DNA of 64,000 nucleotides from a virus. Position numbers and translations under genes: made by a program. Location: the IMG/VR virus record IMGVR_UViG_3300045973_000434, positions 1 through 64,000 of that record. The stretch is one strand, 5' to 3'. Below the pieces are notes generated by a model. The model was not told the origin of the DNA. It did no database searches and saw nothing but the letters and a program-made list of their open reading frames with translations. Below are positions 2,635 to 38,091 of this stretch, piece after piece (positions within the stretch are counted from its first letter, which is position 1; the number at the start of each line of letters is the position of its first letter).

Positions 2635-2997
2635 TTAATTACCATTTGGAACTGTACCCTTTGGTGGTACATTCCGCCTTTTTGTACAATCTACGTAACA
2701 ATCATCCCCTTTTGAGTTGAGATAATACATACGAAAACGATTATACTGTTCTTTTTTTGCTGGTGTAGAAAGAACCCATGTTTCCCATTCTTTACCTGGA
2801 TGTAATACAACGGGTAAAGGTCGTTGTTTGTTGATCTGTTTCTTAATTTTAGCATCATATCCTATACTTCTGAAACTTACGTCCCTGATAATAATAGGAG
2901 ATTTGCTATCATTTCTCACATTTAAAAATAAATGTGGCGTCTGCTTTGGATCTTCTGTGAAGACAGCAGAGTGAACACGGAATTTGATTTTCTTCAT
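2635..2997 (-). CDS. hypothetical protein (120 aa from first ATG)
   Basis: The track ORF 2635..3048 starts at a TTG. The first ATG (2997) removes the overlap with the upstream gene. A promoter-motif copy lies about 110 nt upstream of that ATG. Confidence 0.55.
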   Translation of the reverse strand: MKKIKFRVHSAVFTEDPKQTPHLFLNVRNDSKSPIIIRDVSFRSIGYDAKIKKQINKQRPLPVVLHPGKEWETWVLSTPAKKEQYNRFRMYYLNSKGDDCYVDCTKRRNVPPKGTVPNGN

Positions 2998-3014
2998 TTT
3001 TTGATTGTATTTAG

Positions 3015-3224
3015 TTAAATGGTGATTTCTTTTATATCTGTGCCACAAATACCTGTATCATAAGGATCTAATTGTAGTTCCTTACCATTTATAACTATTC
3101 TATCAAATAAACGTACTCCGTTTTTGAGCGTTACATTAACTACATGAAAACCTAAACCTGATTCAGGTATATTTTCAAGTTGTTTGACAAATTTGTCTGG
3201 TAATAATACTGTAAATCTTTCCAT
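3015..3224 (-). CDS. hypothetical protein (69 aa)
   Basis: ATG ORF preceded by an intergenic region. Confidence 0.5.
   Translation of the reverse strand: MERFTVLLPDKFVKQLENIPESGLGFHVVNVTLKNGVRLFDRIVINGKELQLDPYDTGICGTDIKEITI
3108..3135 (-). promoter_or_regulatory. minus-strand copy of the TGTAAC-N16-CGTTTA promoter-like motif
   Basis: The plus strand reads TAAACG-N16-GTTACA, an exact reverse complement of the motif with exact 16-nt spacing. It lies inside the 69-aa ORF, upstream of 2635..2997. Confidence 0.45.
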
Positions 3225-4216: not shown

Positions 4217-5052
4217 TTCTTTTGATTTTTTAGTGTGTGTATAAAAATTATTTAGTCTTTGTGCAAGTGTGCATGTTAAAAGGGGATTCTCATACAATGT
4301 GATAGTTGAATTAATTGCGCTAAAGAAATTATGAATTTAAACCTATCGTTATGTGAAAGAACGCGTATTTAAATCCCCTTTATGACTGATTTACTGGATG
4401 TCTTCGCTAACCATGTGCTTCATGTGCTATTGACTATTAAACGGCTTCTAACCATCAAGGCTGACCACGTTCCAGTAAACCATTTGTAGACTATGCTGGT
4501 GTTGATCCAGCATTACGGTGAGTTTTAGGGCTTAATTGCTTTTGCTCACATAAACTAGCCTCCTACGTGCTAATAGTCTGATACCAATGTTCTTTATAAG
4601 GAGTCTTTACACTGGACTCAAGCTGTATATAACGTTCAGCGTCGTATTGTTCTTATCTCCTTTTATATATTGTTTATGCAATACATAAAATTAATGCTAC
4701 ATAACGTGTATAAATACACAGCACTATACCTGTTTATGCAACTTATGTTCATTGCTTTATCAGGATTATTGCGTTATAGCGTGCAATCAGCTGTTGAATA
4801 TGTTCCGCCTACCAACTGGCGAGAAGATCCATGTCTGCATTTAGGATCTAATAATTTGATTTAGAGATATCAATGTAGTCATCCATTGATGGTAAGAACA
4901 AGTTGTGGGTAGAGACAGTTACGAGCTGCCATACAGCCTATCTCACGACAGTCTGCGTATTTACATAGCTTATACGATCCCCCTGCCATTAAAATGGGTT
5001 TTCTTCATGTCTGTGCTTAGTAAGATTTGACAATTAAAATTCCCAATGTGGT
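4217..5052. other. 836-nt ORF-free gap with raised GC, hairpins and short direct repeats
   Basis: There is no minus-strand ORF of 60 aa or more. AAAGGGGATT (4280-4289) pairs with AATCCCCTTT (4371-4380). ATGCTGG/CCAGCAT forms a hairpin near 4492-4512. TGTTTATGCAA occurs at 4671 and 4731, exactly 60 bp apart. Confidence 0.5.
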
Positions 5053-6693: not shown

Positions 6694-7113
6694 TTATATT
6701 ATTTTAAATTGATATTTTCCTTCTATTATTTTTGTTTCAATGTTAGGATTATCTTTTATCCAATTCCATGCAGCTATTCTAGCATCTTCTTTACTATTTA
6801 ATTGATATGCTTTAGCTTTTAATCTAGCTTCGATTAATATACGTGTTGCAAGTTTCTTTGATGGTGGTTTTTTACTTACCCATTCAATAGAATATTTATT
6901 ATGTCCTTCACCTGTTATTCTTTGAACATCAATTATATTCCATTCTTTTAGAATAATACTGATTTCAGGTATGTAAAACATTTTAAATCTTTTAGCAAGT
7001 GTACTAAAACCAACATTTATCTTTGTGTTTAGATAAGTGGCTTTGTGTATAAAGATCATAAATTGTAACAATCTCCATACATTTTCTTGTTCTTTGGTTT
7101 TGATTGTTTTCAT
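6694..7113 (-). CDS. hypothetical protein (139 aa)
   Basis: ATG ORF with an ATGA overlap to the upstream small ORF. Confidence 0.55.
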   Translation of the reverse strand: MKTIKTKEQENVWRLLQFMIFIHKATYLNTKINVGFSTLAKRFKMFYIPEISIILKEWNIIDVQRITGEGHNKYSIEWVSKKPPSKKLATRILIEARLKAKAYQLNSKEDARIAAWNWIKDNPNIETKIIEGKYQFKII

Positions 7114-7268
7114 TTGGTTAATTCATATTGATGTATTTGTTTACTTCTTCTGATATCACCAATGATTGTAACAGTTATGCAATAAGCTAATGCTACTATC
7201 AAGAATATAATTATAAATAACCATAGTTTATCATCCATGCTTTGCTTGGGTGTCATTCTTTGTTTCAT
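7110..7268 (-). CDS. 52-aa single-pass membrane protein (below ORF-track cutoff)
   Basis: Hand translation gives MKQRMTPKQSMDDKLWLFIIIFLIVALAYCITVTIIGDIRRSKQIHQYELTK. Its TGA overlaps the ATG of 6694..7113 (ATGA). Confidence 0.45.
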   Translation of the reverse strand: MKQRMTPKQSMDDKLWLFIIIFLIVALAYCITVTIIGDIRRSKQIHQYELTK

Positions 7269-7349
7269 TATATGTGTGTATTTGATTAGTTTAATAACAA
7301 AAGCTATTTGGTAGTATGTAAGTGTTATAAAGGTTATAGCAAAAGAGGC

Positions 7350-7586
7350 TTATTCAGCCCCTATTAACCAATCAAATCCATCAGGTGATCTCCATGTTAT
7401 TGGTCTCTTGACATCAGCAGCTATTGTGCCTACTGCAAGCTTCTCATCTGAGTGACTAAAGATACATCTCTTTACTTTCAATTTGCCTACCATCTCATTG
7501 ATTGATAAGGTTATGACATATTTACTAGTTGGTTTCTTTGAACCATGTTTCGTAGCCAATTGGCATTTTTTAACGATTAATTTCAT
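7350..7586 (-). CDS. hypothetical protein (78 aa), first gene of the leftward arm
   Basis: ATG ORF preceded by the same AATTCAACTGGAA leader as the gene at 6676. Confidence 0.5.
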   Translation of the reverse strand: MKLIVKKCQLATKHGSKKPTSKYVITLSINEMVGKLKVKRCIFSHSDEKLAVGTIAADVKRPITWRSPDGFDWLIGAE

Positions 7587-7611
7587 TTCCAGTTGAATTT
7601 AAGTTTTGGGT

Positions 7612-7706
7612 CATTGACGGAGTACCCTTCCCGCGTAAGCGGGTCGCGGGTGGTTTGATTGGGGTGGTACCCGTTCTCTACAATATAAAAAAAATAAAGG
7701 CCGGGG
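7612..7706. other. GC-rich structured island at the divergence point of the two arms
   Basis: By eye it is well over 50% GC in a background of roughly one-third GC. CCCGC-GTAA-GCGGG forms a hairpin (7630-7643). A mutually exclusive pairing CCCGCG/CGCGGG (7630-35/7645-50) is also possible. GTACCC is directly repeated. Confidence 0.5.
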
Positions 7707-7734
7707 TGTAACATTTAAGTACCTAGTACGTATA
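7707..7734 (+). promoter_or_regulatory. promoter-like motif TGTAAC-N16-CGTATA (copy a)
   Basis: Exact hexamers with exact 16-nt spacer, 35 nt upstream of the ATG at 7770. Confidence 0.6.
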
Positions 7735-7769
7735 CGGGTCTTTTAGTATGAACGTAATAAGTAAATAGA

Positions 7770-8084
7770 ATGTATGCAATTAAGATAGTAAGTGGTTCTA
7801 CTACATATTTATATGAGGCAGAAGAACTAAGTTATAAGGCAGTAATGTGCGAGGGATCTGAAGAGTTTTACTCAGACATGGATAATGACGGTAATGAGTT
7901 TATAATTGGAGATGTTCCAGATAATAAATTTGAGTACTGTAAGATGTATTTAAATGATTCATTTGAACGTAATGGGTATAAGGTGTTTTATATAATGCCA
8001 GAAGCATGGGTTTATATAATGCAGAATGGTAGAACAATTGAACCTTTACAAGTTCATAAGTTTAAGGAGAGTGTTGAAGTTTAA
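7770..8084 (+). CDS. hypothetical acidic protein (104 aa)
   Basis: ATG ORF, first gene of the rightward arm. Confidence 0.55.
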   Translation: MYAIKIVSGSTTYLYEAEELSYKAVMCEGSEEFYSDMDNDGNEFIIGDVPDNKFEYCKMYLNDSFERNGYKVFYIMPEAWVYIMQNGRTIEPLQVHKFKESVEV

Positions 8085-8115
8085 GCCACAACACCTGTAT
8101 ATATTTGTACATACA

Positions 8116-8143
8116 TGTAACTATTGTATATGGTACACGTTTA
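8116..8143 (+). promoter_or_regulatory. promoter-like motif TGTAAC-N16-CGTTTA (copy b)
   Basis: Exact spacing. It lies inside the TTG-initiated N-terminal extension of track ORF 8105..8596, which argues that the extension is not translated. Confidence 0.55.
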
Positions 8144-8191
8144 AATAGGTGTAGGACTATAGTGTCCTATATGTATAATACATTAATTATA

Positions 8192-8596
8192 ATGACAAAC
8201 AAAGGAATTTTAACACTAGAACAAGAGAAGTATCTATCAGGGAAACTTGATGAAACAGTTAAACTGAAAGGTATTCCTGAATTTCTAGATGGTTTTATGT
8301 TTAAAGCAGTCATATCATTTCTTGATGATAATTATCTTGAGAAACTAGATGTGGAATTAAAAGCAAAACTAGGTAAACTAGTTGATGCTGTAATTGCTGA
8401 AGATGTACCTACAGCAGAAGAACTTGCTGCTGATATCGTCGCTTCCTTGGTAAGGATACCAGGACTTGAAGAAGACGAGAACGCACTTATGTTTAAGGGG
8501 GTCATCGAATTGTTAGTAGGGGTTATCCTGAAAGCTATCGCTGATAAGAAGGCTGCTAATGCAGCTGCCACAAAGACAGCTAAGGTAGTTAAGTAA
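8192..8596 (+). CDS. hypothetical helical protein (134 aa from first ATG)
   Basis: First ATG gives MTNKGILTLEQEKYL... The gene sits between its own promoter copy and a strong terminator, so it is a likely monocistronic, highly expressed unit. Confidence 0.6.
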   Translation: MTNKGILTLEQEKYLSGKLDETVKLKGIPEFLDGFMFKAVISFLDDNYLEKLDVELKAKLGKLVDAVIAEDVPTAEELAADIVASLVRIPGLEEDENALMFKGVIELLVGVILKAIADKKAANAAATKTAKVVK

Positions 8597-8618
8597 AGAA
8601 TATATCAAATACAAATAG

Positions 8619-8645
8619 AACCCACCCCACAAGGTGGGTTTTTTA
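8619..8645 (+). terminator. intrinsic terminator
   Basis: AACCCACC-ccacaa-GGTGGGTT (8-bp stem) followed by TTTT. Confidence 0.75.
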
Positions 8646-8655
8646 TTGTGTAAAT

Positions 8656-8683
8656 TGTAACATTTATATGATATATACGTATA
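8656..8683 (+). promoter_or_regulatory. promoter-like motif TGTAAC-N16-CGTATA (copy c)
   Basis: Exact match, 23 nt upstream of the ATG at 8707. Confidence 0.6.
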
Positions 8684-8706
8684 AAACAATATAAAACAAT
8701 AAGATT

Positions 8707-8928
8707 ATGCAGTTTATACAATTACATATGCAGGACTACTTCTATGCTAGGTTTGCATTTGACGAGCAAGACTTGTTATATTTACCAAAGGAAGTGTTAG
8801 CTGAAATTGAGGAAAAGAGTGAAGTGAACGAGTATGCCACATATGAGTGTGCAATACATATAAGGTGTGATGATGAAGTGGAATATAAAAAGCAATGTAT
8901 ATATTGGTTCAGTAAAATATTATGGTAA
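8707..8928 (+). CDS. hypothetical protein (73 aa)
   Basis: ATG ORF after promoter copy c. Confidence 0.5.
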   Translation: MQFIQLHMQDYFYARFAFDEQDLLYLPKEVLAEIEEKSEVNEYATYECAIHIRCDDEVEYKKQCIYWFSKILW

Positions 8929-9320
8929 TGGAAATGAAATTTTATAAACAAGAGGATGTAGACAAGCGTATACAATCTTTATTAGATAGTGGTGTATTAG
9001 TATACAATGCTAAGGAAGTATATAATACTAGGGACTGGTATGATGGTATATTACCAAAGATGTTGATACCAGAGTATACACCTGAAGATGTAACTATTAG
9101 GGCTGGTACTGGTATGGTGTTTATAGTACCTGTTAAACGTGATCATACATATGGTACATTTCAAACATCTATGACATATACAACTGGTGCTGCATATAGT
9201 TTTGGTGCATCGTATCCAAGGTATATAACAGCTTCTATGTCAACTGTATATCAGAGTAAAGATGACAAAGTTATTGTTTGGTTTAAAAATATGTTTAATA
9301 AGTTAAAAGATAAATTGTAA
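8922..9320 (+). CDS. hypothetical protein (132 aa)
   Basis: ATG ORF overlapping the upstream gene by 7 nt. Confidence 0.55.
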   Translation: MVMEMKFYKQEDVDKRIQSLLDSGVLVYNAKEVYNTRDWYDGILPKMLIPEYTPEDVTIRAGTGMVFIVPVKRDHTYGTFQTSMTYTTGAAYSFGASYPRYITASMSTVYQSKDDKVIVWFKNMFNKLKDKL

Positions 9321-9499
9321 TGGGTAGGAAGTCTCCAAATAGGCGTATGCTAGAATACAAGATAGAGAATTTTGAAATGAGTATTTTCAAATTAGGTTAT
9401 AGCATATGTAAAGAAGAAAGAGGACAGAGATGTAATGCAACACCAGACTGTGGTAAAGACAGGAGAATAGGTGGCATACGTTTGTGTTTTGAACGTTAA
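9320..9499 (+). CDS. small basic Cys-containing protein (59 aa, below ORF-track cutoff)
   Basis: Hand translation gives MGRKSPNRRMLEYKIENFEMSIFKLGYSICKEERGQRCNATPDCGKDRRIGGIRLCFER, with a TAATG overlap to the upstream stop. Confidence 0.4.
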   Translation: MGRKSPNRRMLEYKIENFEMSIFKLGYSICKEERGQRCNATPDCGKDRRIGGIRLCFER

Positions 9500-9512
9500 T
9501 AAATAATTAAAT

Positions 9513-9995
9513 ATGAAGAAAATAGACGATCTAATTAATGAATGCCGTATGTTTATACCACTTGATGGTCGAGTGTTAATACATGCGTTGAAGATCAGGC
9601 AGATAAAACAAGAGGACTACTCTTTTGATGTAGCTGACACAAAGGCTAACGAAGGTAAAGATCCAAGTAAACATAGGGTTGACTTAAAGAAGATTCAGCC
9701 TAAGATTAATGCTAAGTACCAAAAGGCTGTAGTGTTACAGGTACCTTTTGATGAATCACGGTTTAAAGTAGGTGATACAATCTTATATCCAATGGGGGCA
9801 TCTCAGTTGTTTGATGTAGTTAAAGGTGTATCAGTTTTACGTAAGTATGACGTAGTAGCTGTGGTAATTAATAATGAAATAAATGAATCTGAACAAGAAA
9901 TGGCAGAGGGATCTACTACGACTAGAGGCAAAGTGTGGATCAATGATAGTGCAAATTTGGCAGGGTTTACTAGTACTACTCCATCTAAGGCGTAG
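9513..9995 (+). CDS. possible GroES/gp31-like co-chaperonin (160 aa)
   Basis: IPLDGRVLIHALK near the N-terminus and KAVVLQVP...FKVGDTILYP...KYDVVAVV resemble GroES landmarks (PLxDRVlv ... vkvGDxVly ... DilAvi), with a long mobile-loop-like insert. This is motif-level evidence only. Confidence 0.35.
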   Translation: MKKIDDLINECRMFIPLDGRVLIHALKIRQIKQEDYSFDVADTKANEGKDPSKHRVDLKKIQPKINAKYQKAVVLQVPFDESRFKVGDTILYPMGASQLFDVVKGVSVLRKYDVVAVVINNEINESEQEMAEGSTTTRGKVWINDSANLAGFTSTTPSKA

Positions 9996-10065
9996 GCGCA
10001 CATGGCATTGGCCATGGCAACATTCCTTCGAACCAAGTGGTTGGCGTTCTAATGAAGTCTTCCTA

Positions 10066-10239
10066 ATGTTATACGAGTACTTATCGAAGGGTGGTTGTGC
10101 AGACTTTACGGAAACAATAGTATTAGCAAATGATCCAGATGAACCATGGTGTGTAGATCCTATAAGTCATTTAACCTTCTATAATGGTGATGAAGTTAGG
10201 GAACCGATGATAATCGGCAATGCTGATTTACTATGCTAA
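10066..10239 (+). CDS. hypothetical protein (57 aa from internal ATG)
   Basis: The track ORF 9883..10239 overlaps the preceding gene for 113 nt with an implausible Arg/Trp-rich N-terminus. The ATG at 10066 gives MLYEYLSKGGCADF... Confidence 0.35.
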   Translation: MLYEYLSKGGCADFTETIVLANDPDEPWCVDPISHLTFYNGDEVREPMIIGNADLLC

Positions 10240-10257
10240 AATATTTATTGAAAATAA

Positions 10258-10285
10258 TGAAACCTTTTTTAAAACATTTCGTTTA
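10258..10285 (+). promoter_or_regulatory. degenerate promoter-like motif TGAAAC-N16-CGTTTA (copy d)
   Basis: One mismatch in the upstream hexamer with exact 16-nt spacing. The spacer (CCTTTTTTAAAACATTT) resembles that of copy e (CCTTTTTGAAATCTGTT). Confidence 0.45.
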
Positions 10286-10676
10286 AGTGGTATGACTCCC
10301 AAATAGGGAGGCAGAAAGCTAGAGTAGTTTAGGGCCTACCACCGAGAAAATTGGTACAGGGATTGAGAGTAGGATAAGTTTTAAGATAGCTGGAGAGCGC
10401 TTAAATAAGAGGGACTAAGAAATATGACCCGACTAAATTGCTTAAACTGGATGCTCATTAAACTGAGTTTTATCAAGGAATAACCTTTTCTTGGGGAACT
10501 CATCTATTCAGATAACTTAAAGAATACAGTTAAAGAGGTCTAAGTATTTAATAAAGTGAAGTACAAAAAAAATATGTGAAAAAAATAATATAGGTAAGCA
10601 TCCTCCTTAGGGAGAGTTTTTTATAAGTTGATTTCTATTATTTACGGGGGAGGGGCGCAAGCCTCTCTCTTTTTTT
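10286..10676 (+). ncRNA. candidate non-coding RNA (~390 nt), class unknown
   Basis: No ORF of 60 aa or more on either strand. The unit is bracketed by promoter copy d and an intrinsic terminator. GC is raised. Hairpins are CTCCC-aaata-GGGAG (10296-10310) and CTCC-ttag-GGAG (~10603-10614). Confidence 0.4.
10647..10676 (+). terminator. intrinsic terminator
   Basis: GAGGGGC-GCAA-GCCTCTC stem (one G.U pair, GNRA loop) followed by a T7 run. Confidence 0.7.
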
Positions 10677-10703
10677 GTAACCTTTTTGAAATCTGTTCGT
10701 ATA
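10676..10703 (+). promoter_or_regulatory. promoter-like motif TGTAAC-N16-CGTATA (copy e)
   Basis: Exact match starting in the terminator T-run, 30 nt upstream of the ATG at 10734. Confidence 0.6.
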
Positions 10704-10733
10704 ATAGGTTAGTAATAATTAAAAACAAATATT

Positions 10734-10937
10734 ATGTGTAATTATTTTTGTGTATGCAATAACTGTCCTTTTGTAAAGAAGTGCAATGTCGTCGAAGATC
10801 GGCCACAGACAAAGAATGTAAGACGTGAAGAATCAGGTAATTGGGTTGTTGAACTTCGTGGCTTCAGGGAAGTCAAAGAAGTAAAAGAAGAAAAGAAATC
10901 CAATAATACTCGTATAATCGATATTTATTTATTCTAA
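10734..10937 (+). CDS. small Cys-rich protein (67 aa)
   Basis: N-terminus is MCNYFCVCNNCPFVKKC; the C-terminus is charged. Confidence 0.5.
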   Translation: MCNYFCVCNNCPFVKKCNVVEDRPQTKNVRREESGNWVVELRGFREVKEVKEEKKSNNTRIIDIYLF

Positions 10938-11152
10938 TGGAAAAATATAGTTTTTTATATTTTGTATTTCAAATCTTATCTGTTATGGCTGGCTTTGTTA
11001 TAGGCTCTTTTCTATGGGGCCTAGTTTCTAAAAAGAAACCTACACAAGTAGTATATCAATTGGATATGTCTCTCATGAATGAGAGTGAGTCACTAGACCA
11101 GTTTATTATGCGTGCTTTTAATGAGGGTTTAGGCAGTTATAGAATTGTTTAA
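10937..11152 (+). CDS. small membrane protein (71 aa)
   Basis: Hydrophobic stretch FLYFVFQILSVMAGFVIGSFLWGLV, with a TAATG overlap to the upstream gene. Confidence 0.5.
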   Translation: MEKYSFLYFVFQILSVMAGFVIGSFLWGLVSKKKPTQVVYQLDMSLMNESESLDQFIMRAFNEGLGSYRIV

Positions 11153-11227
11153 TATTAAATAATAAGAAAATGAAAAGTACAAAATCGACAAAGAAGCCAA
11201 TGAAAAAAGGCGGAAAAAAATGTTAAT

Positions 11228-11515
11228 ATGTCTGACATAATAATGAAGGACCCTGAGTTTGGGTATACTATCAGGTATACCCCCTCTGAGGGTTTTATAG
11301 ATTGGGAAGTCTCCAACGAAGATGGGGATGTCCTTATGATAGGTAAATTTGATTCTAAGGATTATTATAAATCAGTGTTTACCTTAGTTCCTTCTAATGT
11401 GGAGGAAAATATTTATGAGAATCTGTTTTATCTCTACTTCGAAAATATCAAACTTAAGTGTATAGATATGGTAGAAGGAGATGAATCAATTGGTGATGAA
11501 GATTATGATAAATAA
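11228..11515 (+). CDS. hypothetical acidic protein (95 aa)
   Basis: ATG ORF, rich in D/E. Confidence 0.5.
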   Translation: MSDIIMKDPEFGYTIRYTPSEGFIDWEVSNEDGDVLMIGKFDSKDYYKSVFTLVPSNVEENIYENLFYLYFENIKLKCIDMVEGDESIGDEDYDK

Positions 11516-11543
11516 TGTAACTTTTTTATAAGTTATACGTATA
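11516..11543 (+). promoter_or_regulatory. promoter-like motif TGTAAC-N16-CGTATA (copy f)
   Basis: Exact match, 32 nt upstream of the ATG at 11576. Confidence 0.6.
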
Positions 11544-11575
11544 AGTATATAGTTGTAAAATTAATAAAATAAAGA

Positions 11576-11872
11576 ATGAATGAAGTTTGGCTTTTTCACA
11601 ATAAAAGTGAAGTAAGGGAAAAAAGAAGAGTAGGTGATATAGTATATGCATTTACAAATTGGGGAATAGTAAAAGGTAAGATTGTTAAAGAAAGAATTGA
11701 TAGGAATTCTGGTATACCACAGTATAAACTTAACATAGTAGTTGATAAGAACAATGAGGATGTTGATTATAACTTTTGGTACACAACAGAACAGCTAAGC
11801 AAAACTAAGTTTACAGCAATTATGTCTGAACTAGTTAGACCAATGAAAGTTAAGAGTATAAATAAAGCATAA
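11576..11872 (+). CDS. hypothetical protein (98 aa)
   Basis: ATG ORF after promoter copy f. Confidence 0.5.
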   Translation: MNEVWLFHNKSEVREKRRVGDIVYAFTNWGIVKGKIVKERIDRNSGIPQYKLNIVVDKNNEDVDYNFWYTTEQLSKTKFTAIMSELVRPMKVKSINKA

Positions 11873-11883
11873 TAAGCAAAAAC

Positions 11884-12465
11884 ATGTATAAGAAGAGCGA
11901 ATCTTACGATAAGAAATTTCCAACAGTAATGGTACTTGAAAACCTACTTGGAGCAGATGAAGGTACAATTTTAAAGTTTGACCCATTCTCTGGCAAGTAT
12001 GTATCTGTTGTTGAAGAAGAGGAAATAAGTGATGATTATTTTTATTCAGGATCTGCAATTGCAATTGATCCTTATATAGTTCAAGATAATATAGGTGTGT
12101 TATTTACACACATTGATCAGGCTCCAAGCGATACTGCTGAACAAGAAGAGAAAGAATTTATTGAGGAAACTAATAAAATGGCAGAAGCAAAACCTGTAAA
12201 AACAGAAACAAATGGCCAAGAACCTGAACAAGATTATGAATACAAAAAAGTACATACTCTAGTTGTAGACTGTGAATGTGGTCATAGAAATTTTATTGAT
12301 GCTATAGATGCACCTGGTATTAATGTAACATTAATGGCAGAGGATGAAACAAGTTTTATAGAATTACATTGTAAAGAATGTGGTTCTAATCTTAAGTTGT
12401 GGTTTGCCCCCTCAGAAGAATTAACAAAAGGGACAAATGAACCTACTAAAGAAAAAAGTAAGTAA
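11884..12465 (+). CDS. hypothetical protein with C-terminal zinc ribbon (193 aa)
   Basis: CECGHRN ... CKECGSN pairs in the C-terminal third; the middle is acidic. Confidence 0.55.
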   Translation: MYKKSESYDKKFPTVMVLENLLGADEGTILKFDPFSGKYVSVVEEEEISDDYFYSGSAIAIDPYIVQDNIGVLFTHIDQAPSDTAEQEEKEFIEETNKMAEAKPVKTETNGQEPEQDYEYKKVHTLVVDCECGHRNFIDAIDAPGINVTLMAEDETSFIELHCKECGSNLKLWFAPSEELTKGTNEPTKEKSK

Positions 12466-12784
12466 GAGCATACTCTTCTCTGAGTATACAAAAATACTAA
12501 ATGGGGTACTTCAGCTTTCCAATAGGGAGGCTGAGGTTTTCTCATTTTTACTACAGAAAGATTCTGTAGGGGATTCCACAAACATAAATACTAAAGAGAT
12601 TAGGGCTGAGATTATAAAAACATATAATATCAGTGAAGCTAATTTAAGTAGGTATTTAGGTGTGATAAAGAATAAAGGTCTAATCATTAGAGGGCAAACC
12701 GGTAAATGGGTAATTAATGATTTAGTTAGACCTGTTATTAAAGATAACGTATTTGAATTAAAGTTTGTATTGGAGATAGAGTAA
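12437..12784 (+). CDS. possible winged-helix DNA-binding protein (115 aa)
   Basis: LSNREAEVFSFLLQ ... ISEANLSRYLGVIKNKGLIIRG resembles a MarR/wHTH recognition helix plus wing. Confidence 0.35.
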   Translation: MNLLKKKVSKSILFSEYTKILNGVLQLSNREAEVFSFLLQKDSVGDSTNINTKEIRAEIIKTYNISEANLSRYLGVIKNKGLIIRGQTGKWVINDLVRPVIKDNVFELKFVLEIE

Positions 12785-13164: not shown

Positions 13165-13754
13165 TGAAATTATATGATATTGTAAACGGGAAGGTTGTCA
13201 TGAACCCCCAGTCTTTGGCCATGCCAGAGTTTCGCTATTTATGGGATAGGGATAATGATATAGACAAAGATAATGCTGTAAGGGAGATTTCTTATATAGT
13301 GTTTCTTTGTGATGATTCATTAGCTAATCCATACAGGGCATATAAAGAAGGCGATAGGGAGGAAGTCCTTAGGCGAGATTTTATAAAAAATATGAAATGG
13401 AAAGCTGATAAACACATAGCAGTTGCCATTAAAAAATATGTAGAAGCAACTCAAACAACTAACTCAAGGTTGTTAAAAGCTGCTAAAAACGCTGCTGAAA
13501 AGTTAGCTGGCTACTTCGATATGATTGACTTCAATGAAGTTGACAAGGATGGTAAGCCAATGTTCTCTGCTAAAGAACTTGCTAGTAACTTAGCTGCAGT
13601 AGGTAATATTGTTAAATCCTTACACCAACTTGAAGAGATGGTTAAGAAAGAACAACTAGAGACTAACACAGTACGTGGTGGTGGGGAAATTGGTTTTTAT
13701 GAACTACCAAGACGTGACTTTGATTATGGAGATGGGATAGATGAAGACGTATAA
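13164..13754 (+). CDS. hypothetical protein (196 aa); small-terminase candidate by position only
   Basis: It lies immediately upstream of TerL and overlaps it by 14 nt. The sequence is helical and charged. Confidence 0.5.
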   Translation: MKLYDIVNGKVVMNPQSLAMPEFRYLWDRDNDIDKDNAVREISYIVFLCDDSLANPYRAYKEGDREEVLRRDFIKNMKWKADKHIAVAIKKYVEATQTTNSRLLKAAKNAAEKLAGYFDMIDFNEVDKDGKPMFSAKELASNLAAVGNIVKSLHQLEEMVKKEQLETNTVRGGGEIGFYELPRRDFDYGDGIDEDV

Positions 13755-15804
13755 AATACATGTCGTAAAAGAAACAAACGCTGACAAATTTAGACCGGCA
13801 GCTTTAAAATTTGAAAAGAATAATTATTATACTTCAGCCCCTCCTGGGACCACAGCGTTCATGGAGTTTTGGGATGAGGAATTAGGCAGGTGTATTCATG
13901 GATATACTACACCAGATGGGGAGTACATAACAGGGTACTTCTATTTTTATTTAAACTACTCTCGTATTATAAAGACGGAGGAAGTTAAAAAAATGCAACC
14001 CAATGGTAAAATGAAAACCATTGTACGAAGACTTGAATCTTTCCCAAGGTATTACGATTACGATAGAGCTTATTTCGAAGCAATTGAAGAAGCTGAAGTT
14101 AATGGTAGACACCTTGTGGTTATCAAAAAAAGGGGTGCAGGGTATTCGTACAAAGGAGGATCAATGATGTGTAGGAATTTTTATTGTATTCCTAGGTCAA
14201 AATCATATGCTATAGCATCAGAAGCAGAGTTCTTAACAAAGGACGGACTGCTTACAAAAGCTTGGGAAATGATGAGCTTCATTGACGTTAACACTGCTTT
14301 TGGTAAGAAAAGACAGAAAAAAGATACAGCCATGCATAAGCGAGCTTCTTATGTAGTGGATGATGATACATATGGAATCAAGTCTGAACAAGGCTGGGGT
14401 TCTGAAATTATGGGTGTTAGTTTGAAAAACGACGCTCAAAAAGCTAGGGGAAAAAGAGGTAAATTAATTCTATGGGAGGAAGCTGGTAAGTTTCCAAACT
14501 TAAAAGAAGCGTGGCAGATTGCTAGGCCGTCTGTAGAAGACGGTACAGTTGCTTTCGGGTTAATGATAGCATATGGAACTGGTGGTACAGAAGACGCTGA
14601 CTATGAAGGTTTAAAACAATTGTTTTATGAACCGGATGGGTATAACGCCCTCCCAATTGAAAATGAATGGGACGAGAGTGCAAGCGGCACAGCCTGTGGA
14701 TTTTTTGTACCTCAGTACTATAACATGGAAGGTACTGATAAATTTGGTATAATAGAAGAAGGTAGGAAGTTTATGGACGAGAATGGTAACTCTGATATTG
14801 AGTTTACCAAGAAATATTGTCTAATAGAAAGGGACAAGATTATCAATAGTTCTAGTGATAAAACCTCTATAGATAGGTATATTGCTGAACGTCCTTTCAA
14901 TCCACTTGAAGCTACTCTACAAATACATGGTAATATATTCCCTAAAAAAGATTTAATACGGCACTTAGCCGCGATAAGAAACTCTGAAAAACTAAGGGAT
15001 TTTAAACAAGTTGGTGATTTATACTTTGATTCAAACGGCAAAGTAAAATGGGAGATATCTACTCATTTAAAAGATTTAACTAAATATAGATTGGGCCCAG
15101 GGGATGATCCTAGCGGTGCAATAGTTATTTGGGAACACCCGGCTGAGGACATCCCTTACGGCCTATATATAATAGGTTGTGACCCTTATGATCACGATCA
15201 ATCAGGTACTAACTCTTTAGGCTCTGCAATTGTATATAAAAGATTTCAAGGATTTGAAGAATACTATGATTTACCAGTTGCAGAATATACTGGTAGGCCA
15301 GACACAGCAGATGAATTTTATGATAAAGTAAGGTTACTATCTGTTTATTTTAATGCAAAGATATTATATGAAAACGAAAAAAAGGGTTTGTTTGATTATA
15401 TGTCTAGGAAAAATTGTGAATACCTTTTAGCTGATCAACCTGATATCATCAAAGATATTGTTAAGGATAGTACAGTTAAAAGAGGCAAGGGAATACATAT
15501 GGTAGCTGGTATTAAAGATTGGGGAGAAGGTGCAATCAAAGACTGGTTAATAACTGAATATGCTCCAGGTAGACGTAATCTAACAAAGGTTTTTTCAGAA
15601 CCCTTACTGGAAGAACTTATTGCTTATAATACAAGTGGTAACTTCGATAGAGTGATGGCCTTCATGATGGTTATTATTTATATCAGAGAATTACATCACG
15701 TAACTGTGAAACAAAAAAGGGAGTTCGAAAAGAAATCATTATTCCGGGATAAACTATTCGAACTTGATAATGACAATTATTTTAATAAATTTAAATCAAT
15801 TTAA
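13741..15804 (+). CDS. terL: terminase large subunit (687 aa)
   Basis: It has a Walker-A-like KKRGAGYSYKG, a Walker-B-like KLILWEEAG, and a nuclease-domain Asp cluster IIGCDPYDHD. Size and position directly upstream of the portal gene fit TerL. Confidence 0.8.
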   Translation: MKTYKIHVVKETNADKFRPAALKFEKNNYYTSAPPGTTAFMEFWDEELGRCIHGYTTPDGEYITGYFYFYLNYSRIIKTEEVKKMQPNGKMKTIVRRLESFPRYYDYDRAYFEAIEEAEVNGRHLVVIKKRGAGYSYKGGSMMCRNFYCIPRSKSYAIASEAEFLTKDGLLTKAWEMMSFIDVNTAFGKKRQKKDTAMHKRASYVVDDDTYGIKSEQGWGSEIMGVSLKNDAQKARGKRGKLILWEEAGKFPNLKEAWQIARPSVEDGTVAFGLMIAYGTGGTEDADYEGLKQLFYEPDGYNALPIENEWDESASGTACGFFVPQYYNMEGTDKFGIIEEGRKFMDENGNSDIEFTKKYCLIERDKIINSSSDKTSIDRYIAERPFNPLEATLQIHGNIFPKKDLIRHLAAIRNSEKLRDFKQVGDLYFDSNGKVKWEISTHLKDLTKYRLGPGDDPSGAIVIWEHPAEDIPYGLYIIGCDPYDHDQSGTNSLGSAIVYKRFQGFEEYYDLPVAEYTGRPDTADEFYDKVRLLSVYFNAKILYENEKKGLFDYMSRKNCEYLLADQPDIIKDIVKDSTVKRGKGIHMVAGIKDWGEGAIKDWLITEYAPGRRNLTKVFSEPLLEELIAYNTSGNFDRVMAFMMVIIYIRELHHVTVKQKREFEKKSLFRDKLFELDNDNYFNKFKSI

Positions 15805-33400: not shown

Positions 33401-34368
33401 GGATGACTCCTAACACAGATGCTACAAATTCTTCTGGATTTAATGGAGTTGGAAGTGGTAGTAGGTGGTACAACGATGGCACATATAATAGTATCCATGG
33501 TTACTCATTTATGTGGGGTACTGATGTTAGATATGGTCAAGGTGTAACTGGACAGCTTGTTGCAAATAACCCTACCTTTAATACAACAGGAGGTACTAGT
33601 TATACATATGCAGATGTTAAAAATGGTTATAATATACGTTTTATAAAGGACAATTCTGTTGTAGGAGATTGTATAGATTACGATGGAAATAATTACGGAG
33701 GTGTTTTAATAGGAACACAAGTATGGACTACTAAAAATTTTAAGGGTACTCATTATAACGATGGCACAGTAATACCATTGGTAACAGATAACAATGAATG
33801 GATAGCATTAGGTGTACCTATTGATGTAACTAATGATGATAGTAATAGAATGCCGTCTAAGGCTGGAGCGACGACTACAATTAATTGGGGACAAACATTC
33901 CCATCAATAGGTAAGTCACTCACAAAAGTTATAGTTAAAGTTAATAGTGGCAATAGTAAATTAGGTTCTCCTGATTTTAATATAAGATGTTCAATATATA
34001 ATACAAGTTTAGGTATTCAGTACGCTACTACAACAATGTTGCCTACCACCAAAATAGCTGATTCTACAAATGTCATTTCAGCATCTATATGGGGAACTGA
34101 TAATCACGAGTTCTTATTTAACAGTCTTTCCTTACCAATAGGACAGTATGCTATTTATTTTACTTATGAAGATGTAGTTCTTAATGATGAGTCTAATAAT
34201 ATTGGTTTTAGTTGGGGATACAGTACATATCCGGGAGGAGAAGCTTTTTATCATTATAGTTCCTATGCTGCTGGTGTTTATAATACTCTTGGGCCAGCAT
34301 TAAATTTATATATATATTTTGAAGGAGACGGTATGTGTTATTATAACAACGATCCAACATATGCTTAA
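30445..34368 (+). CDS. tailspike-like protein (1307 aa): parallel beta-helix + 4 tandem Ig/FN3-like domains + permuted FISUMP-type domain
   Basis: The N-terminus YYIRTDGSDSNTGL...CKTLASV, plus about 11 rungs of the type NN(I/T/F)(I/F)xG, mark a PbH1 beta-helix. See the repeat feature and findings for the rest of the protein. Confidence 0.75.
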   Translation: MAQYYIRTDGSDSNTGLANTAGGACKTLASVCGKATAVGDVINVGVGTFIESQLCVLRPGVSIVGAGVTSIIKSHVANTDGANDGLIELYSSTQNYAGNQSISNIKLDGDALQGGGAIYIYRRGNVSIHDCTIVDFKYCGVVFDNELSWVSPGTFAVSNSLYNNIITNCHGSGGGGNVRLTSQATFSMYGNTIDGRTRGMQNSVTFSNCKAITINNNTFYTLDTRPSGNWNFSFEVWDSWGGIEFHHNNFLGGGTMDLGGHYTYKGAYAFGISVHDNNFTIASRQPYTPEECIAITSESWQRLEDVWIYNNRITNFASGIQVTFGAQAGGVAQNYYIFNNIFEGMGYTDRSAYVIGFVDQNVAVTSYTNINIINNVIVSGANPGIAIRYDVMGSNTNINIKNNIVSGAFSPAVRFAVADYGGTFTNLAVTNNIFFGVGANYSWVGIPSQGTLSPVSASNPNFVSATDFHLKAGSAAIGYGTTVANVTNDLAGNAYANPRSVGVYEYSAVVPVIATITTSSVTGITSTTATTGGIISTDGGAIVTSRGICWATTSNPTIANNKVIDPTTGTGTFVSLITGLTQSTIYHVRAYATNSVGTAYGADIQFVTTTPVVLPTVTTQAASLISYTTATGNGNITSSGGATVTGGFCCATHTVPTTADNSISVVIGAGVYSGGWTGLLPSTTYYLRAWATNSAGTSYGNEVSFTTLTPSAPTVTTGAIFAITQTSATVAGTVTNINGAAITGTGICWSTISGPTITGSHTSDGISLSWSGSLTGLSSNTLYYVRAYATNSAGTSYGTQISFTTTAALPTLNLTSITSITSTTASSGGNTLNDNGSVITAKGICWSTTTTPTIATSHTTDGSGNSNYSSTLSGLVANTLYYVRAYATNSIGTGYSSQLTFTTSPSVTYISVIKAQVKKWMCVPDDRGHGALYNWYVASSSKVAPVGWHVPSNAEFNTLRTFFDPYGAYINNVAGGPLKQIGITHWMTPNTDATNSSGFNGVGSGSRWYNDGTYNSIHGYSFMWGTDVRYGQGVTGQLVANNPTFNTTGGTSYTYADVKNGYNIRFIKDNSVVGDCIDYDGNNYGGVLIGTQVWTTKNFKGTHYNDGTVIPLVTDNNEWIALGVPIDVTNDDSNRMPSKAGATTTINWGQTFPSIGKSLTKVIVKVNSGNSKLGSPDFNIRCSIYNTSLGIQYATTTMLPTTKIADSTNVISASIWGTDNHEFLFNSLSLPIGQYAIYFTYEDVVLNDESNNIGFSWGYSTYPGGEAFYHYSSYAAGVYNTLGPALNLYIYFEGDGMCYYNNDPTYA
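31972..33160 (+). repeat. four tandem ~97-aa domain repeats inside the tailspike gene
   Basis: Each unit contains ...(G/K)GICW(A/S)T...PT(I/T)...LTGL...T.YYVRAYATNS.GT.YG..(I/L).F.T. The units are diverged at the DNA level. Confidence 0.7.
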
Positions 34369-34385
34369 TTATTTATCACTTTAAT

Positions 34386-34413
34386 TGTAACAAAATTGAA
34401 TTAATTTCGTATA
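34386..34413 (+). promoter_or_regulatory. promoter-like motif TGTAAC-N16-CGTATA (copy g)
   Basis: Exact match, 29 nt upstream of the ATG at 34443. It is the only copy inside the late/structural region. Confidence 0.55.
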
Positions 34414-34442
34414 ATTAAATTAAAAAAGATTATATAAAACTT

Positions 34443-35168
34443 ATGAACCCACAGATAGTGATGTTAGATCCAGCAGGTTTTCACAACAAAGATTTAGATG
34501 TGTCTGCTGATAGACTAGAGAAAAGTAAAACATATAGAGACCTGTCGACTATTATTATATGTCCGACACGGGGTCAGATACCAGCAAAGGTTGTACAGTC
34601 CTGGATGGGATTGATGAGACCTATGAATCAGAAAGTAATAGGACCGATCTTTGCAATTGGAATGGAAGTAGGACAAGCCTATAACAATGTTATAGAGAAC
34701 ATACTTGCTAATCCTGAGCTCTCTCAGTATAAATATATAATGACAATAGAAGAAGACAACATGCCTCCGGTAGATGGTTTACTTAGATTGTATGAGAGTA
34801 TGGATAAGTACGATGTAGTACAGGGGTTATACTGGACTAAAGGGGAAGGTGGACAGCCTATGATATATGGCGATCCTTCTGTAATGCCAAAGAACTTTAT
34901 ACCTCAAGTACCCAAAGCAGACCAAGTACAACAGTGCAATGGTTTAGGTATGGGTTTTAATTTGTTTAAAATGGAGATCTTTAAAGATAAAGATATTCCT
35001 AAACCTTGGTTTAAAACAGTACAGGAAGTTATACCTGGTGTTGGGGCTAGGGCTTATACACAAGATCTATACTTCTATGAGAATGCTGCTAAGGCAGGTT
35101 ATATATTCGCATGTGATAATAGAGTAAGGGTAGGACACTACGATATTAATTCAGATATAGTGTGGTAA
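34443..35168 (+). CDS. glycosyltransferase, GT-A-like (241 aa)
   Basis: IIICPTRG (Rossmann-like start), an acidic TIEEDNMPP (DxD-type position), NGLGMGFNLF, and TQDLYFYENAAKAGY...VGHYD. This is motif-level evidence. Confidence 0.5.
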   Translation: MNPQIVMLDPAGFHNKDLDVSADRLEKSKTYRDLSTIIICPTRGQIPAKVVQSWMGLMRPMNQKVIGPIFAIGMEVGQAYNNVIENILANPELSQYKYIMTIEEDNMPPVDGLLRLYESMDKYDVVQGLYWTKGEGGQPMIYGDPSVMPKNFIPQVPKADQVQQCNGLGMGFNLFKMEIFKDKDIPKPWFKTVQEVIPGVGARAYTQDLYFYENAAKAGYIFACDNRVRVGHYDINSDIVW

Positions 35169-35170
35169 TT

Positions 35171-35347
35171 ATGAAATATGAAATATTAAAAGCTAAAGAC
35201 AAAACATTTTATTTTGTACTTAAAGCAAAAAACGGTGAGATAATAATCACCTCAGAAACTTACAAGACAAAACAAGCCTGTAAAAAAGGAATTAGGTCTG
35301 TAAAAGTAAACAGTATATTCAGTAGAACTATTGACTCAACAAAGTAA
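35171..35347 (+). CDS. YegP-like (DUF1508) small protein (58 aa from ATG)
   Basis: KYEILKAKDKTFYFVLKAKNGEIIITSETYKTKQACKKGIRSVK matches the YegP repeat consensus (F.l.k....fRF.LkA.NGeii..Se.Y.sk..a..gI.sVk). The track start at 35162 is a GTG. Confidence 0.6.
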   Translation: MKYEILKAKDKTFYFVLKAKNGEIIITSETYKTKQACKKGIRSVKVNSIFSRTIDSTK

Positions 35348-35349
35348 AT

Positions 35350-36018
35350 ATGAAAAAAGGAACAGTAGAACCAAGTGCAGCTAAGATGATTAATGAGTTG
35401 AAACTTGACCTGGCGTGTGGCCAGAATAAAGCAGAAGGTTATTTCGGGATTGATATATTCCCTGGAGAGAACGTTGATGGTGTTGTGGATCTAGAACAGT
35501 TTCCATGGCCGATAGAATCAAACAGTGCTGAGGATATTGTGTGTAATCATTATATTGAACACACACCGACAGAACCATTTTCAAAAGATTTAATGTATGC
35601 TATCTTAGAATCAAATACATTAGAAGAGTTAAAAAGTAAAGTAGAAATATTAAAACTTAAACCTTCTGATGGACTTATAAGATTCATGGATGAGATATAC
35701 AGAATACTTAAACCAGGTGGTAAAGTTAAATTCGTAGCACCTTATTATAATTCAATTAGATGTTGGCAAGATCCTACTCATAAAAGAGCGATCAGCGAAG
35801 CTACCTTTCTTTATTATAATAAACAGTGGAGAGATACAAATAGGTTAAACCATTATCCTATACATTGCGACTTCGATTATACTTACGGGTATGATATGAA
35901 TGTTGAGTTTGCTAACAAACACGAAGACGCTAGAAACTATGGTGTAGCACATTACATGAATGTTATAAATGACATACATGTAGTTCTTACTAAAAGAGAA
36001 CCAGAACTTAAGAAATAA
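35350..36018 (+). CDS. class I SAM-dependent methyltransferase (222 aa)
   Basis: Motif I LDLACGQNKAEGYFGIDI, ILKPGGKVKFVAP, and DPTHKR. Confidence 0.6.
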   Translation: MKKGTVEPSAAKMINELKLDLACGQNKAEGYFGIDIFPGENVDGVVDLEQFPWPIESNSAEDIVCNHYIEHTPTEPFSKDLMYAILESNTLEELKSKVEILKLKPSDGLIRFMDEIYRILKPGGKVKFVAPYYNSIRCWQDPTHKRAISEATFLYYNKQWRDTNRLNHYPIHCDFDYTYGYDMNVEFANKHEDARNYGVAHYMNVINDIHVVLTKREPELKK

Positions 36019-36019
36019 C

Positions 36020-36322
36020 ATGAAAGCACAACAATCAGAAATAGATACTTACATAACAGACATCAGGTCGGCTATTGCCGACTTTGGTGATTCTGTTGCT
36101 ACCAAACAACGTTTAGGAAAAACAGATATAAGATGTGACAAACTAAAACTTATGTTACTATCTATTTGTCTCGATTGTCTTAGTGACTATTTTTTGCAGT
36201 ACCAAGATCCAGATGAAGTAGATCCTGATACAACAAACTTTTTCACCACATCAGAGATTCGTGATATAATGCAGCATGTTAATAATATGTGTAAAACAAA
36301 TTATATAATAGTAAATCTATAA
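36020..36322 (+). CDS. hypothetical protein (100 aa)
   Basis: ATG ORF, tightly packed. Confidence 0.5.
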   Translation: MKAQQSEIDTYITDIRSAIADFGDSVATKQRLGKTDIRCDKLKLMLLSICLDCLSDYFLQYQDPDEVDPDTTNFFTTSEIRDIMQHVNNMCKTNYIIVNL

Positions 36323-36324
36323 AC

Positions 36325-36615
36325 GTGGAAAAGAAGATTAGGGAAATGAGTCAAATACAAATACAAAACGTGTCGGCGGATGTGTTAGAGTTATTACAGA
36401 AAGACATATCCGATATTAAGATGGCACTGCTTGGTAATGAATATAACCCAGGTGGTGGTTTACTAAGTAGGACAGCAGAACTTGAAAAGGAATTATCAAA
36501 ACTTAAAAGTAGGTACGAACGAATAATATGGACCGTTAGTGTTGTAGGTGCTATTATTACTATGATTTTTAATTTCATTGCACAATTTTGGGACAAGCTT
36601 ATTGTTACTAAATAA
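36325..36615 (+). CDS. coiled-coil protein with C-terminal TM helix (96 aa; GTG start, alternative ATG 36346), lysis-associated candidate
   Basis: IIWTVSVVGAIITMIFNFIAQFW lies near the C-terminus. The gene is directly upstream of the endolysin with an ATAATG junction. Confidence 0.45.
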   Translation: MEKKIREMSQIQIQNVSADVLELLQKDISDIKMALLGNEYNPGGGLLSRTAELEKELSKLKSRYERIIWTVSVVGAIITMIFNFIAQFWDKLIVTK

Positions 36616-37100: not shown

Positions 37101-37134
37101 CATAAATACTATATTACCAGAGACTCAACGTAGA

Positions 37135-37371
37135 ATGAAAATTACTCTGTTGGTGTTTTTTGTAAATATAATTATATTTACTATTGGTTTATTCCTTAGA
37201 GCTAATTTATTAGAACTTGGTGGAGGAATAGCTGCAGTAGAAACTCCTGTAATTGCATGGGTGTTTGCTGAGAGTATTAGACCTACTGGTGAATACCTTA
37301 CTACGAAAACTACAACAACAACAACTAATGCTGAAACAGGTACAGTAAAAGAAACTATAAAAAATGAGTAA
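37135..37371 (+). CDS. two-TM holin-like protein (78 aa from ATG after the endolysin stop)
   Basis: MKITLLVFFVNIIIFTIGLFL and GGIAAVETPVIAWVFA are hydrophobic. The track ORF starts at GTG 37057, inside the endolysin gene. Confidence 0.45.
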   Translation: MKITLLVFFVNIIIFTIGLFLRANLLELGGGIAAVETPVIAWVFAESIRPTGEYLTTKTTTTTTNAETGTVKETIKNE

Positions 37372-38089: not shown

Positions 38090-38091
38090 AA

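Follow-up and report, generated by a model that had tools for sequence, protein, structure and literature searches.

To our knowledge, the promoters of crAss-like phages are almost unknown: primary-sigma middle promoters have been mapped in phage phi14:2, and no promoter of a virion RNA polymerase (vRNAP) has been found. In phi14:2 the genes g110, g108, g075 and g070 hold 'middle' promoters of the host RNA polymerase (RNAP), the middle module is sensitive to rifampicin, and the early genes transcribed by the vRNAP, whose transcripts withstand rifampicin, showed no common motif (Drobysheva et al., bioRxiv 10.1101/2020.03.07.982082). Here we describe a bipartite motif, TGTAAC-N16-CGT(A/T)TA, that heads successive gene units in 64,000 nucleotides of a crAss-like phage (positions 1 to 64,000 of the IMG/VR virus record IMGVR_UViG_3300045973_000434; this whole stretch is called the window below). 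We propose that its copies are promoters of the type recognised by extracytoplasmic function (ECF) sigma factors, and that their probable reader is the host RNAP in combination with an ECF sigma, which the host itself most likely supplies.

Promoters of ECF sigmas share an AAC in the -35 element and a CGT in the -10 element, separated by 14-17 nt, and a subset has a T-tract right after the -35; sites of sigma-W, for instance, read tGAAACnTTTt...CGTA (PMC5758882). The closest described relatives of the motif are chromosomal. Mapping of transcription start sites (TSSs) in Flavobacterium psychrophilum gave a promoter set, SM6, that was assigned to sigma-ECF (Guerin et al. 2021, ISME Commun, PMC9723704). 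The SM6 regulon is induced at low nutrient levels and includes Band-7 proteins, GldN, PorU, an ABC ATPase and an ECF sigma/anti-sigma pair; the authors did not assign the responsible sigma among the seven ECF sigmas of the species (PMC9723704). One SM6 site, 'ctttGTAACtttcgatacaaaCTAGCGTATAACCAATA' (tttGTAAC-N16-CGTATAA), lies ahead of a Band-7 gene and another, 'ttttGTAACaaaaaacaaacgCTTTCGTCTTACTATAA' (ttGTAAC-N16-CGTCTTA), ahead of the ABC ATPase (PMC9723704, supplement). The strongest rpoD start of F. psychrophilum (101 reads, 31-nt leader), which the authors left unclassified, follows 'aTGTAACtttttgcaaactcatTACGTATAA' (TGTAACttttt-N-CGTATAA) (PMC9723704).

Results

A bipartite motif heads gene units of the window

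The pattern TGTAAC-N16-CGTWTA had seven exact matches in the 64-kb window, where dinucleotide-preserving shuffles gave 0.02, and the wider TGWAAC-N16-CGTWTA had eight, compared with 0.06 in shuffles (Table 1). A preliminary description of this DNA had listed six plus-strand copies in a 4-kb stretch (7707-11543) and eight in all, with a chance expectation far below one; we recovered every copy at its exact position, and the shuffles bear out the estimate. It had also called the 16-nt spacer invariant. All eight copies do have this spacing, but our pattern fixed it at 16 nt, so that invariance within the window is assumed by the search; in relatives and other phages the spacer varies from 15 to 17 nt. 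The flanks of the eight copies are mutually unrelated, and the copies thus do not stem from one duplicated segment.

The gene map divides in two, with one set of genes reading leftward from about 7586 and the other rightward from 7770. The first set forms the replication-side module; beyond the window it goes on with genes for a 1036-aa protein and for an AMP-binding enzyme, to which relatives add a ribonucleotide reductase. The second set leads from small genes to packaging, head and tail genes. Each of the eight copies is oriented like the genes around it. Non-coding DNA, 3,800 nt or 5.9% of the window on a simple gene map, holds seven of them (binomial P = 2e-8), and the intergenic enrichment expected in the preliminary description is thus present within the window. 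That description had placed each copy shortly before a start codon or a candidate non-coding RNA, several of them directly after a terminator. Six copies indeed end 23-35 nt before an ATG and the one at 10258 precedes a unit of about 350 nt that is free of open reading frames (ORFs) and ends in a terminator; copies directly after terminators number two.

In order to score the sites independently of the window, we used a weight matrix made solely from 144 sites of unrelated phages, among which a T-tract after the -35 box is strong. The top seven ranks of the window all went to the seven plus-strand sites, of which five scored above every shuffle (maximum 12.6) and two, at 7707 and 8116, were weaker. 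A T-tract follows the -35 box in six of the eight window sites. A hairpin promoter in the style of phage N4 was considered and rejected: fold energies at the sites were inside the shuffle range, a common stem was absent and the two boxes are not complementary. Megablast of positions 7000-12500 against the INPHARED phages gave no match, and neither did tRNA and Rfam scans.

Table 1. Promoter-like sites and associated features of the window. Predicted TSSs lie about 8 nt past the -10 box.
Feature	Position	Strand	Matrix score (bits)	Motif end to next ATG (nt)	Predicted TSS	Remarks
Weak candidate site	3108-3135	-	0.8		3100	Replication-side module; upstream of 2635-3048
ECF-type promoter-like site	7707-7734	+	10.3 (borderline)	35	about 7742	TGTAACaTTT-N-CGTATA; heads 7770-8084 gene, first unit of plus-strand module, directly past divergent region
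ECF-type promoter-like site	8116-8143	+	5.3 (weak)	27	about 8151	CGTTTA variant; heads 8171-8596 gene
Intrinsic-terminator-like hairpin and T-run	8617-8642	+				Closes preceding unit; ends 13 nt before 8656 motif
ECF-type promoter-like site	8656-8683	+	28.4	23	8691 (A)	Heads gene run 8707 to about 9995
ECF-type promoter-like site	10258-10285	+	14.0		10293	TGAAAC / CGTTTA variant; heads candidate non-coding RNA unit
Candidate non-coding RNA unit	10293-10671	+				ORF-free; flanked by 10258 site and 10646-10671 terminator; transcription predicted
Intrinsic-terminator-like hairpin and T-run	10646-10671	+				Closes ORF-free unit; ends 4 nt before 10676 motif
ECF-type promoter-like site	10676-10703	+	29.6	30	10711 (A)	Heads genes 10734 to 11515
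ECF-type promoter-like site	11516-11543	+	20.4	32	11551	Directly past stop codon of 11228-11515; heads 11576 onward
ECF-type promoter-like site	34386-34413	+	31.0 (best of window)	29	34421	Inside structural module
Giant ORF	52392-64000	+				Runs off window, >3,869 codons; DFDID at residue 3093 (about 61668-61682)

The sites have the form of ECF promoters of the SM6 class

The window sites read TG(T/A)AAC, mostly followed by nTTT, and CGT(A/T)TA at a spacing of 16 nt, so that an AAC-containing -35 element and a CGT-containing -10 element are found in all eight. Judged by its sequence, the motif is a promoter-type element of a known kind, the ECF-sigma kind, and specifically of the SM6 class. 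Read as ECF -35 and -10 boxes, the elements no longer show the odd 19-nt gap that had been remarked upon under a sigma-70 reading. The Bacteroidota sigma-A signature (TAnnTTTG at -7 with TTTG at -33) is present at none of the eight sites, and TAnnTTTG occurs only twice in all non-coding DNA of the window, in line with the earlier remark that the motif does not fit the sigma-A consensus. A scan for E. coli-type sigma-70 promoters (TTGACA-N16-18-TATAAT) returned 49 matches where 59.7 were expected, none of them coinciding with the sites. When the 61-nt windows of the published supplement are set against the sequence given for one RNA driven by an SM6 promoter, the SM6 start falls about 8 nt past the final A of CGTATA. 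With this offset taken from F. psychrophilum, we predicted a start for each window site (Table 1) and leaders of 16-28 nt for the six that precede an ATG. From its sequence, we also infer that the strong rpoD start of F. psychrophilum is of the same class as SM6.

A short, conserved, intergenic sequence might also serve a DNA-binding regulator of phage or host as its target, and not be the core of a promoter, all the more as initiation in the window phage is a prediction. We find this hardly credible, given that the boxes are asymmetric and non-palindromic, with the spacer fixed at 16 nt, a strict orientation and an equally fixed distance from the start codon, that TSSs of F. psychrophilum follow the same sequence, that no other promoter consensus accompanies the sites (neither the sigma-70-like form, with its 49 matches against 59.7 expected, nor TAnnTTTG) and that hairpin potential does not exceed that of shuffles.

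The motif precedes rpoD, queA, Band-7 and ECF sigma genes in Bacteroidota chromosomes

A strict form of the motif, TGTAACnTTTTT-N10-CGTATAA, was searched in cellular genomes with one genome per species and gave at least 120 loci. Bacteroidota account for about 62 of 80 listed titles (Flavobacterium, Flavobacteriaceae, Bacteroidales, Chitinophagales, Saprospiraceae and Cytophagales). At 35 of the 120 listed loci the first downstream ORF is a sigma of 287 aa whose best models are RpoD, with the motif 21-46 nt upstream in most; we take this to be the size of the Bacteroidota primary sigma. It is QueA at 16 of the listed loci, mostly in Bacteroidales, a Band-7 or flotillin-like protein at four, and an ECF sigma of 160-161 aa at three, the latter reaching 112.6 bits with its best model, NF058625 (GFO_1088/PG0214 family), under the cutoff of 130 bits. 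With the motif ahead of it, such a sigma gene has the self-regulated form typical of ECF systems. Both the Band-7 and the ECF sigma genes of this genome scan agree with the published SM6 regulon (PMC9723704). From its placement before rpoD, queA, Band-7 and ECF sigma genes, the motif is, as far as sequence tells, a cellular promoter class of Bacteroidota.

In many Flavobacteriia the 287-aa primary-sigma gene is preceded at 21-46 nt by the motif (for example loci L277, L239, L252, L259, L270 and L309 among L238-L357; L numbers designate the loci and contigs of this study). An ECF sigma driving rpoD across the phylum would itself be of interest.

In unrelated phages, arrays of the motif lie beside ECF sigma genes

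The strict form was also found in at least 119 IMG/VR stretches, on contigs of 39 kb to 372 kb. Here the motif often forms dense, strand-coherent arrays, with up to 23 copies of TG[AT]AAC-N16-CGT[AT]TA per 12 kb, and at the seven densest loci examined most copies precede the ATG of a small gene by 14-30 nt. Among 113 ORFs from array loci, five matched Sigma70_r2 and Sigma70_r4_2 in Pfam, and an iterative search led to eleven ECF sigma homologues; in an NCBIfam scan, eight out of eight phage sigmas passed the sigma70-ECF superfamily model TIGR02937 (66.5-89 bits, cutoff 42.9). Conversely, we searched by sigma protein. Where the sigma is at least 34% identical, 12 of 14 loci have the motif, in 3-23 copies that lie almost without exception on the strand of the sigma gene and mostly begin just downstream of it; the motif search had already led to the contigs of eight of these 12, and the other four are new. 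At 15 loci whose sigmas are more distant, the motif was absent throughout.

Five of the phage sigma genes stand behind the host primary-sigma box TAnnTTTG and two directly behind the motif. Such an arrangement is the layout expected of a cascade in which host sigma-A would drive a phage ECF sigma, which would in turn drive the arrays of ECF-type promoters, with autoregulation in some phages. Sigma genes preceded by TAnnTTTG are seen in L114 (1250-1410), L082 (7460-7624 and 10830-10986), L159 and L089. L144 and L099 have theirs immediately after the ECF-type motif. The two sigma genes of L082 are paralogous. No protein shared with the window phage was detectable at the 11 sigma-holding loci, and a few of the other motif loci are its relatives. 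The preliminary description had called the motif phage-specific, a view that does not survive these comparisons, as the same sequence is found at the TSS-mapped SM6 promoters, upstream of Bacteroidota genes and in the arrays of unrelated phages.

The sites are conserved in position among close relatives

Loci related to the window phage by their TerL (56-80% identity) contain 13 exact copies in about 0.9 Mb, 12 of them on the TerL strand and upstream of TerL. The search among related phages that had been suggested earlier thus returned copies at syntenic positions, whereas more distant gut crAss-like phages (about 54% identity) had none. In L005, L105 and L146 a copy comes right after the homologue of the 11228-11515 gene, which is the position of the 11516 copy in the window, and in L105 and L146 an ORF-free unit lies between two copies, as between 10258 and 10676. 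The ORF-free unit of the window (10293-10671) has conserved blocks at the matching position in L105 (1137-1526) and L146, such as 'tagggc(c/t)..accacc(g/a)agaaa' and, as a second example, 'aaatga(a/c)ccgacta..ttgc..aaactgga'; a match to an Rfam family was not obtained. The unit is reminiscent of non-coding RNAs that have been reported as abundant and early for phi14:2, at the g004-g006 junctions.

On the replication side, a copy precedes an orthologous gene in L067, L139, L193, L197 and L203, which by our own reading of the sequence would encode a signal-peptide protein with a lytic-transglycosylase-like motif. The leader between the motif and this gene holds a conserved small hairpin ('gtagagtgaaattctctac' / 'gcagtgaagtgaaattcttcac'; L067:15747-15801, L139:391-442, L193, L200/L203), and stem changes between relatives look compensatory.

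Genome context and neighbouring features

The phage was assigned to the crAss-like group through its TerL (13741-15804), portal and major head protein, which match crAss-type PHROGs, and Pfam identified CrAss_Ring_1, CrAss_Ring_2 and CrAss_Ring_3_4 among the window ORFs. Its TerL is less than 60% identical, at best, to that of any deposited phage. The giant ORF at the end of the window contains DFDID, the catalytic motif of crAss-type vRNAPs, and the statement of the preliminary description that the phage has a virion polymerase is thereby upheld. This ORF is far longer than gp66 of phi14:2 (2,180 aa), which suggests, from sequence length, a fusion of the RNAP to neighbouring virion proteins. 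The record of phage Fpv3 has a gene of about 12.9 kb (33939-46802) annotated 'virion structural protein'. Three independent IMG/VR contigs of one relative (L235, L236 and L237) share an end point inside the converging giant RNAP gene, suggesting a recurrent assembly break or a genome terminus.

On the plus strand, we recognised no other promoter type from 7.7 kb to the end of the window, and no promoter-like motif follows the terminators located after the head gene and at 24.2 kb. Read-through from the sites may therefore supply much of the structural module. In particular, no convincing terminator was found between the 11516 site and TerL, and this site may for that reason read into the packaging and head genes. 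The 34386 site occupies a 74-nt gap between a 1307-aa gene and the gene at 34443-35168. The minus-strand site at 3108-3135 is devoid of a T-tract and sits within an ORF of 69 aa that is itself doubtful; it could be a weak promoter or could match by chance. The sole coding-strand TAnnTTTG of the window's non-coding DNA (TATATTTG, 8100-8107) stands 9 nt upstream of the 8116 motif, and that unit might have a primary-sigma promoter in place of, or besides, the ECF-type one.

Some further features were noted. A tiny lysine-rich ORF (MKSTKSTKKPMKKGGKKC, 11171-11227) fills the gap between two small genes. Just before the first motif copy, the divergent region has a GC-rich structured segment at 7600-7700 (e.g. 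CCCGCG-N9-CGCGGG) in AT-rich surroundings, which might be the start region of the leftward, presumably vRNAP-transcribed, module. Within the minus-strand module, the 836 nt at 4217-5052 hold no coding-strand ORF of at least 35 aa and could contain another non-coding RNA or an origin. After the gene of the AMP-binding enzyme, an ORF-free stretch of about 1.7-2 kb is kept in position in the window phage and among its relatives (L001:17019-19021, L067:11548-13234 and L188:7151-8926).

No sigma gene is detected in the phage or its clade

Pfam recognised no sigma among 50 window ORFs nor in further sets just outside the window. A hidden Markov model (HMM) built on 11 sigmas found no match among ORFs of at least 60 aa from the window, the 9.4 kb to its left, L001, L067, L188-L203 and L237, and hhalign over 188 proteins of the clade gave a best sigma probability of 6.5%. 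The relatives included span all of the replication-side module, as far as the point where it meets the giant RNAP gene in convergent orientation. Weak matches to the sigma HMM (E 0.15-1) came from three gene families and were discarded, one being the transglycosylase-like signal-peptide protein and the others noise.

Discussion

We propose the following scheme. The -35 element TG(T/A)AAC, usually with a T-tract, and the -10 element CGT(A/T)TA, 16 nt apart, would constitute a bipartite ECF-sigma-type promoter, from which transcription would start about 8 nt past the -10 box. These promoters would head the successive small-gene units at the beginning of the structural-side (plus-strand) module, together with one ORF-free RNA unit, one unit within the structural module and possibly one on the replication side. 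Their reader would be the host multisubunit RNAP carrying an ECF sigma, and not the vRNAP. Since our searches detected no sigma gene, either in the phage or in its clade, this sigma is most likely the host's own, presumably the one that drives SM6-class promoters in F. psychrophilum. We consider this scheme probable. Firing of the sites, its timing and the cognate sigma in the window phage are what we infer from the analysis as a whole, the timing class following from position. The preliminary description had offered two readers, the phage's own vRNAP and a redirected host enzyme; the second comes close to what we regard as the best explanation, in which the redirecting factor would be an ECF sigma.

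The first of these readers has some points in its favour. The phage encodes a giant DFDID protein, early transcription could begin at the divergent junction, which is where the first copy is located, and no crAss-type vRNAP promoter is known, so that a bipartite form is conceivable. However, the identical motif is used in bacterial chromosomes, where mapped TSSs have been assigned to sigma-ECF, and it occurs in phage contigs of 39-372 kb beside ECF sigma genes; the 11 sigma loci among these share no detectable protein with the window phage, although the DFDID enzyme was not checked for. In addition, seven of the eight copies belong to a module that depends on the host RNAP in phi14:2, whose vRNAP-transcribed early genes showed no common motif and whose scanned half has no copy. 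Because of this chromosomal use, the sigma-linked phage contigs and the behaviour of phi14:2, we judge the vRNAP a very improbable reader.

The other question is whose sigma would be involved. The same promoter class could be served by the host core with an ECF-like sigma that the phage itself encodes in its early module, unseen or too divergent for our searches. Many Bacteroidota phages pair the motif with an ECF sigma of their own, crAss-like cr130_1 (GenBank) has an annotated 'sigma-W factor', and about 27 kb of the genome of the window phage are covered through relatives only, where a phage-specific sigma is possible. Yet the Pfam, HMM and hhalign searches were all negative, the relatives span the full replication-side module, and the sigma of cr130_1 is only 24% identical to the phage sigmas of this study, while the surrounding 23 kb hold a single motif match, which falls within a gene. 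A phage-encoded sigma, though a real alternative, thus appears unlikely to us, and a sigma supplied by the host remains our preferred reading.

Several other observations count against that preferred reading. The sites at 8116 and, on the minus strand, 3135 score poorly with the independent weight matrix. ECF sigmas are normally held by anti-sigma factors, and a virulent phage that relied on one would need basal activity, induction upon infection or a phage activator. No sigma was found here, and the enzyme is therefore assigned by analogy, the SM6 class having been mapped in F. psychrophilum. Finally, Fpv3, a crAss-like phage of F. psychrophilum, is without any copy, and the use of the promoter is therefore clade-specific.

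A more far-reaching idea, which we put forward tentatively and think somewhat less likely to be right than wrong, is that a virulent crAss-like phage lacking a sigma places its whole structural-side module behind a host ECF regulon of the SM6 type (stress or low nutrient) that also drives rpoD. If true, virion production would be gated by the envelope or starvation state of the host, or by a phage activator of that sigma; other Bacteroidota phages, with a copy of the sigma in their own genomes, would be free of this dependence; and cells and phages would have a promoter code in common across the phylum.

The analysis provides a concrete promoter class, with predicted starts, for the structural-side module of one environmental crAss-like clade. 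It points to one ECF-type code that would serve Bacteroidota chromosomes (including rpoD of Flavobacteriia), phages that carry a sigma and phages in which none was found. Whether phage development is coupled to a host stress sigma, and which sigma reads SM6, can now be tested, and the code offers orthogonal promoter and sigma parts for the genetics of Bacteroidota. In the literature searched we found neither a paper linking crAss-like phages with sigma factors or with this motif nor a published description of the pairing of arrays with sigma genes, and what matched the two boxes there was noise from loxP and primers; the motif's use by a crAss-like phage without a sigma of its own and the wide pairing with phage ECF sigmas thus appear to be undescribed there.

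Comparison with known systems sets these sites apart from other phage promoters. N4-type vRNAP promoters are DNA hairpins; N4 resembles the window phage in carrying a vRNAP, but the window sites have no hairpin potential above that of shuffles. In coliphage phiEco32, gp36, a small two-domain sigma of the ECF family, directs the host core RNAP to the middle and late phage promoters. Systems of the phiEco32 type thus rely on a phage sigma, whereas none was found in the window phage, whose promoter is common with a host regulon. The array phages beside whose ECF sigma genes the motif lies (L114/L205, L082/L206, L207, L208, L210, L213, L217 and others) have an identical consensus (TTGTAACcTTTTT..taCGTATAA), one promoter per small gene and strict strand coherence; they differ in carrying a sigma, often behind TAnnTTTG, while our searches of the window phage and of its clade gave none. 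The middle promoters of phi14:2 occupy equivalent positions (upstream of TerL, at the first small genes, as well as at units within the tail and structural region) and use the host RNAP, but they are of the primary-sigma type (TTG ... TAnnTTTG) whereas the window sites are of the ECF type, and the right half of phi14:2, which we scanned, has no copy of the motif. The promoters of sigma-W, of sigma-X and of sigma-V in Bacillus subtilis (Gaballa et al. 2018, NAR, PMC5758882) have the same -35 AAC, -10 CGT(A) and T-tract with a 16-17 nt spacer; they belong to another phylum and to other sigma orthologues, and the likeness is one of promoter architecture, which does not argue for a sigma-W orthologue here. 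The nearest match is SM6, with the same sequence as the window sites, (T)GTAAC, a 16-nt spacer and CGT(A/T)TA(A), and the same placement 20-35 nt before genes; SM6 sites, however, are chromosomal promoters of a stress or low-nutrient regulon, whereas those of the window head the gene units of a phage.

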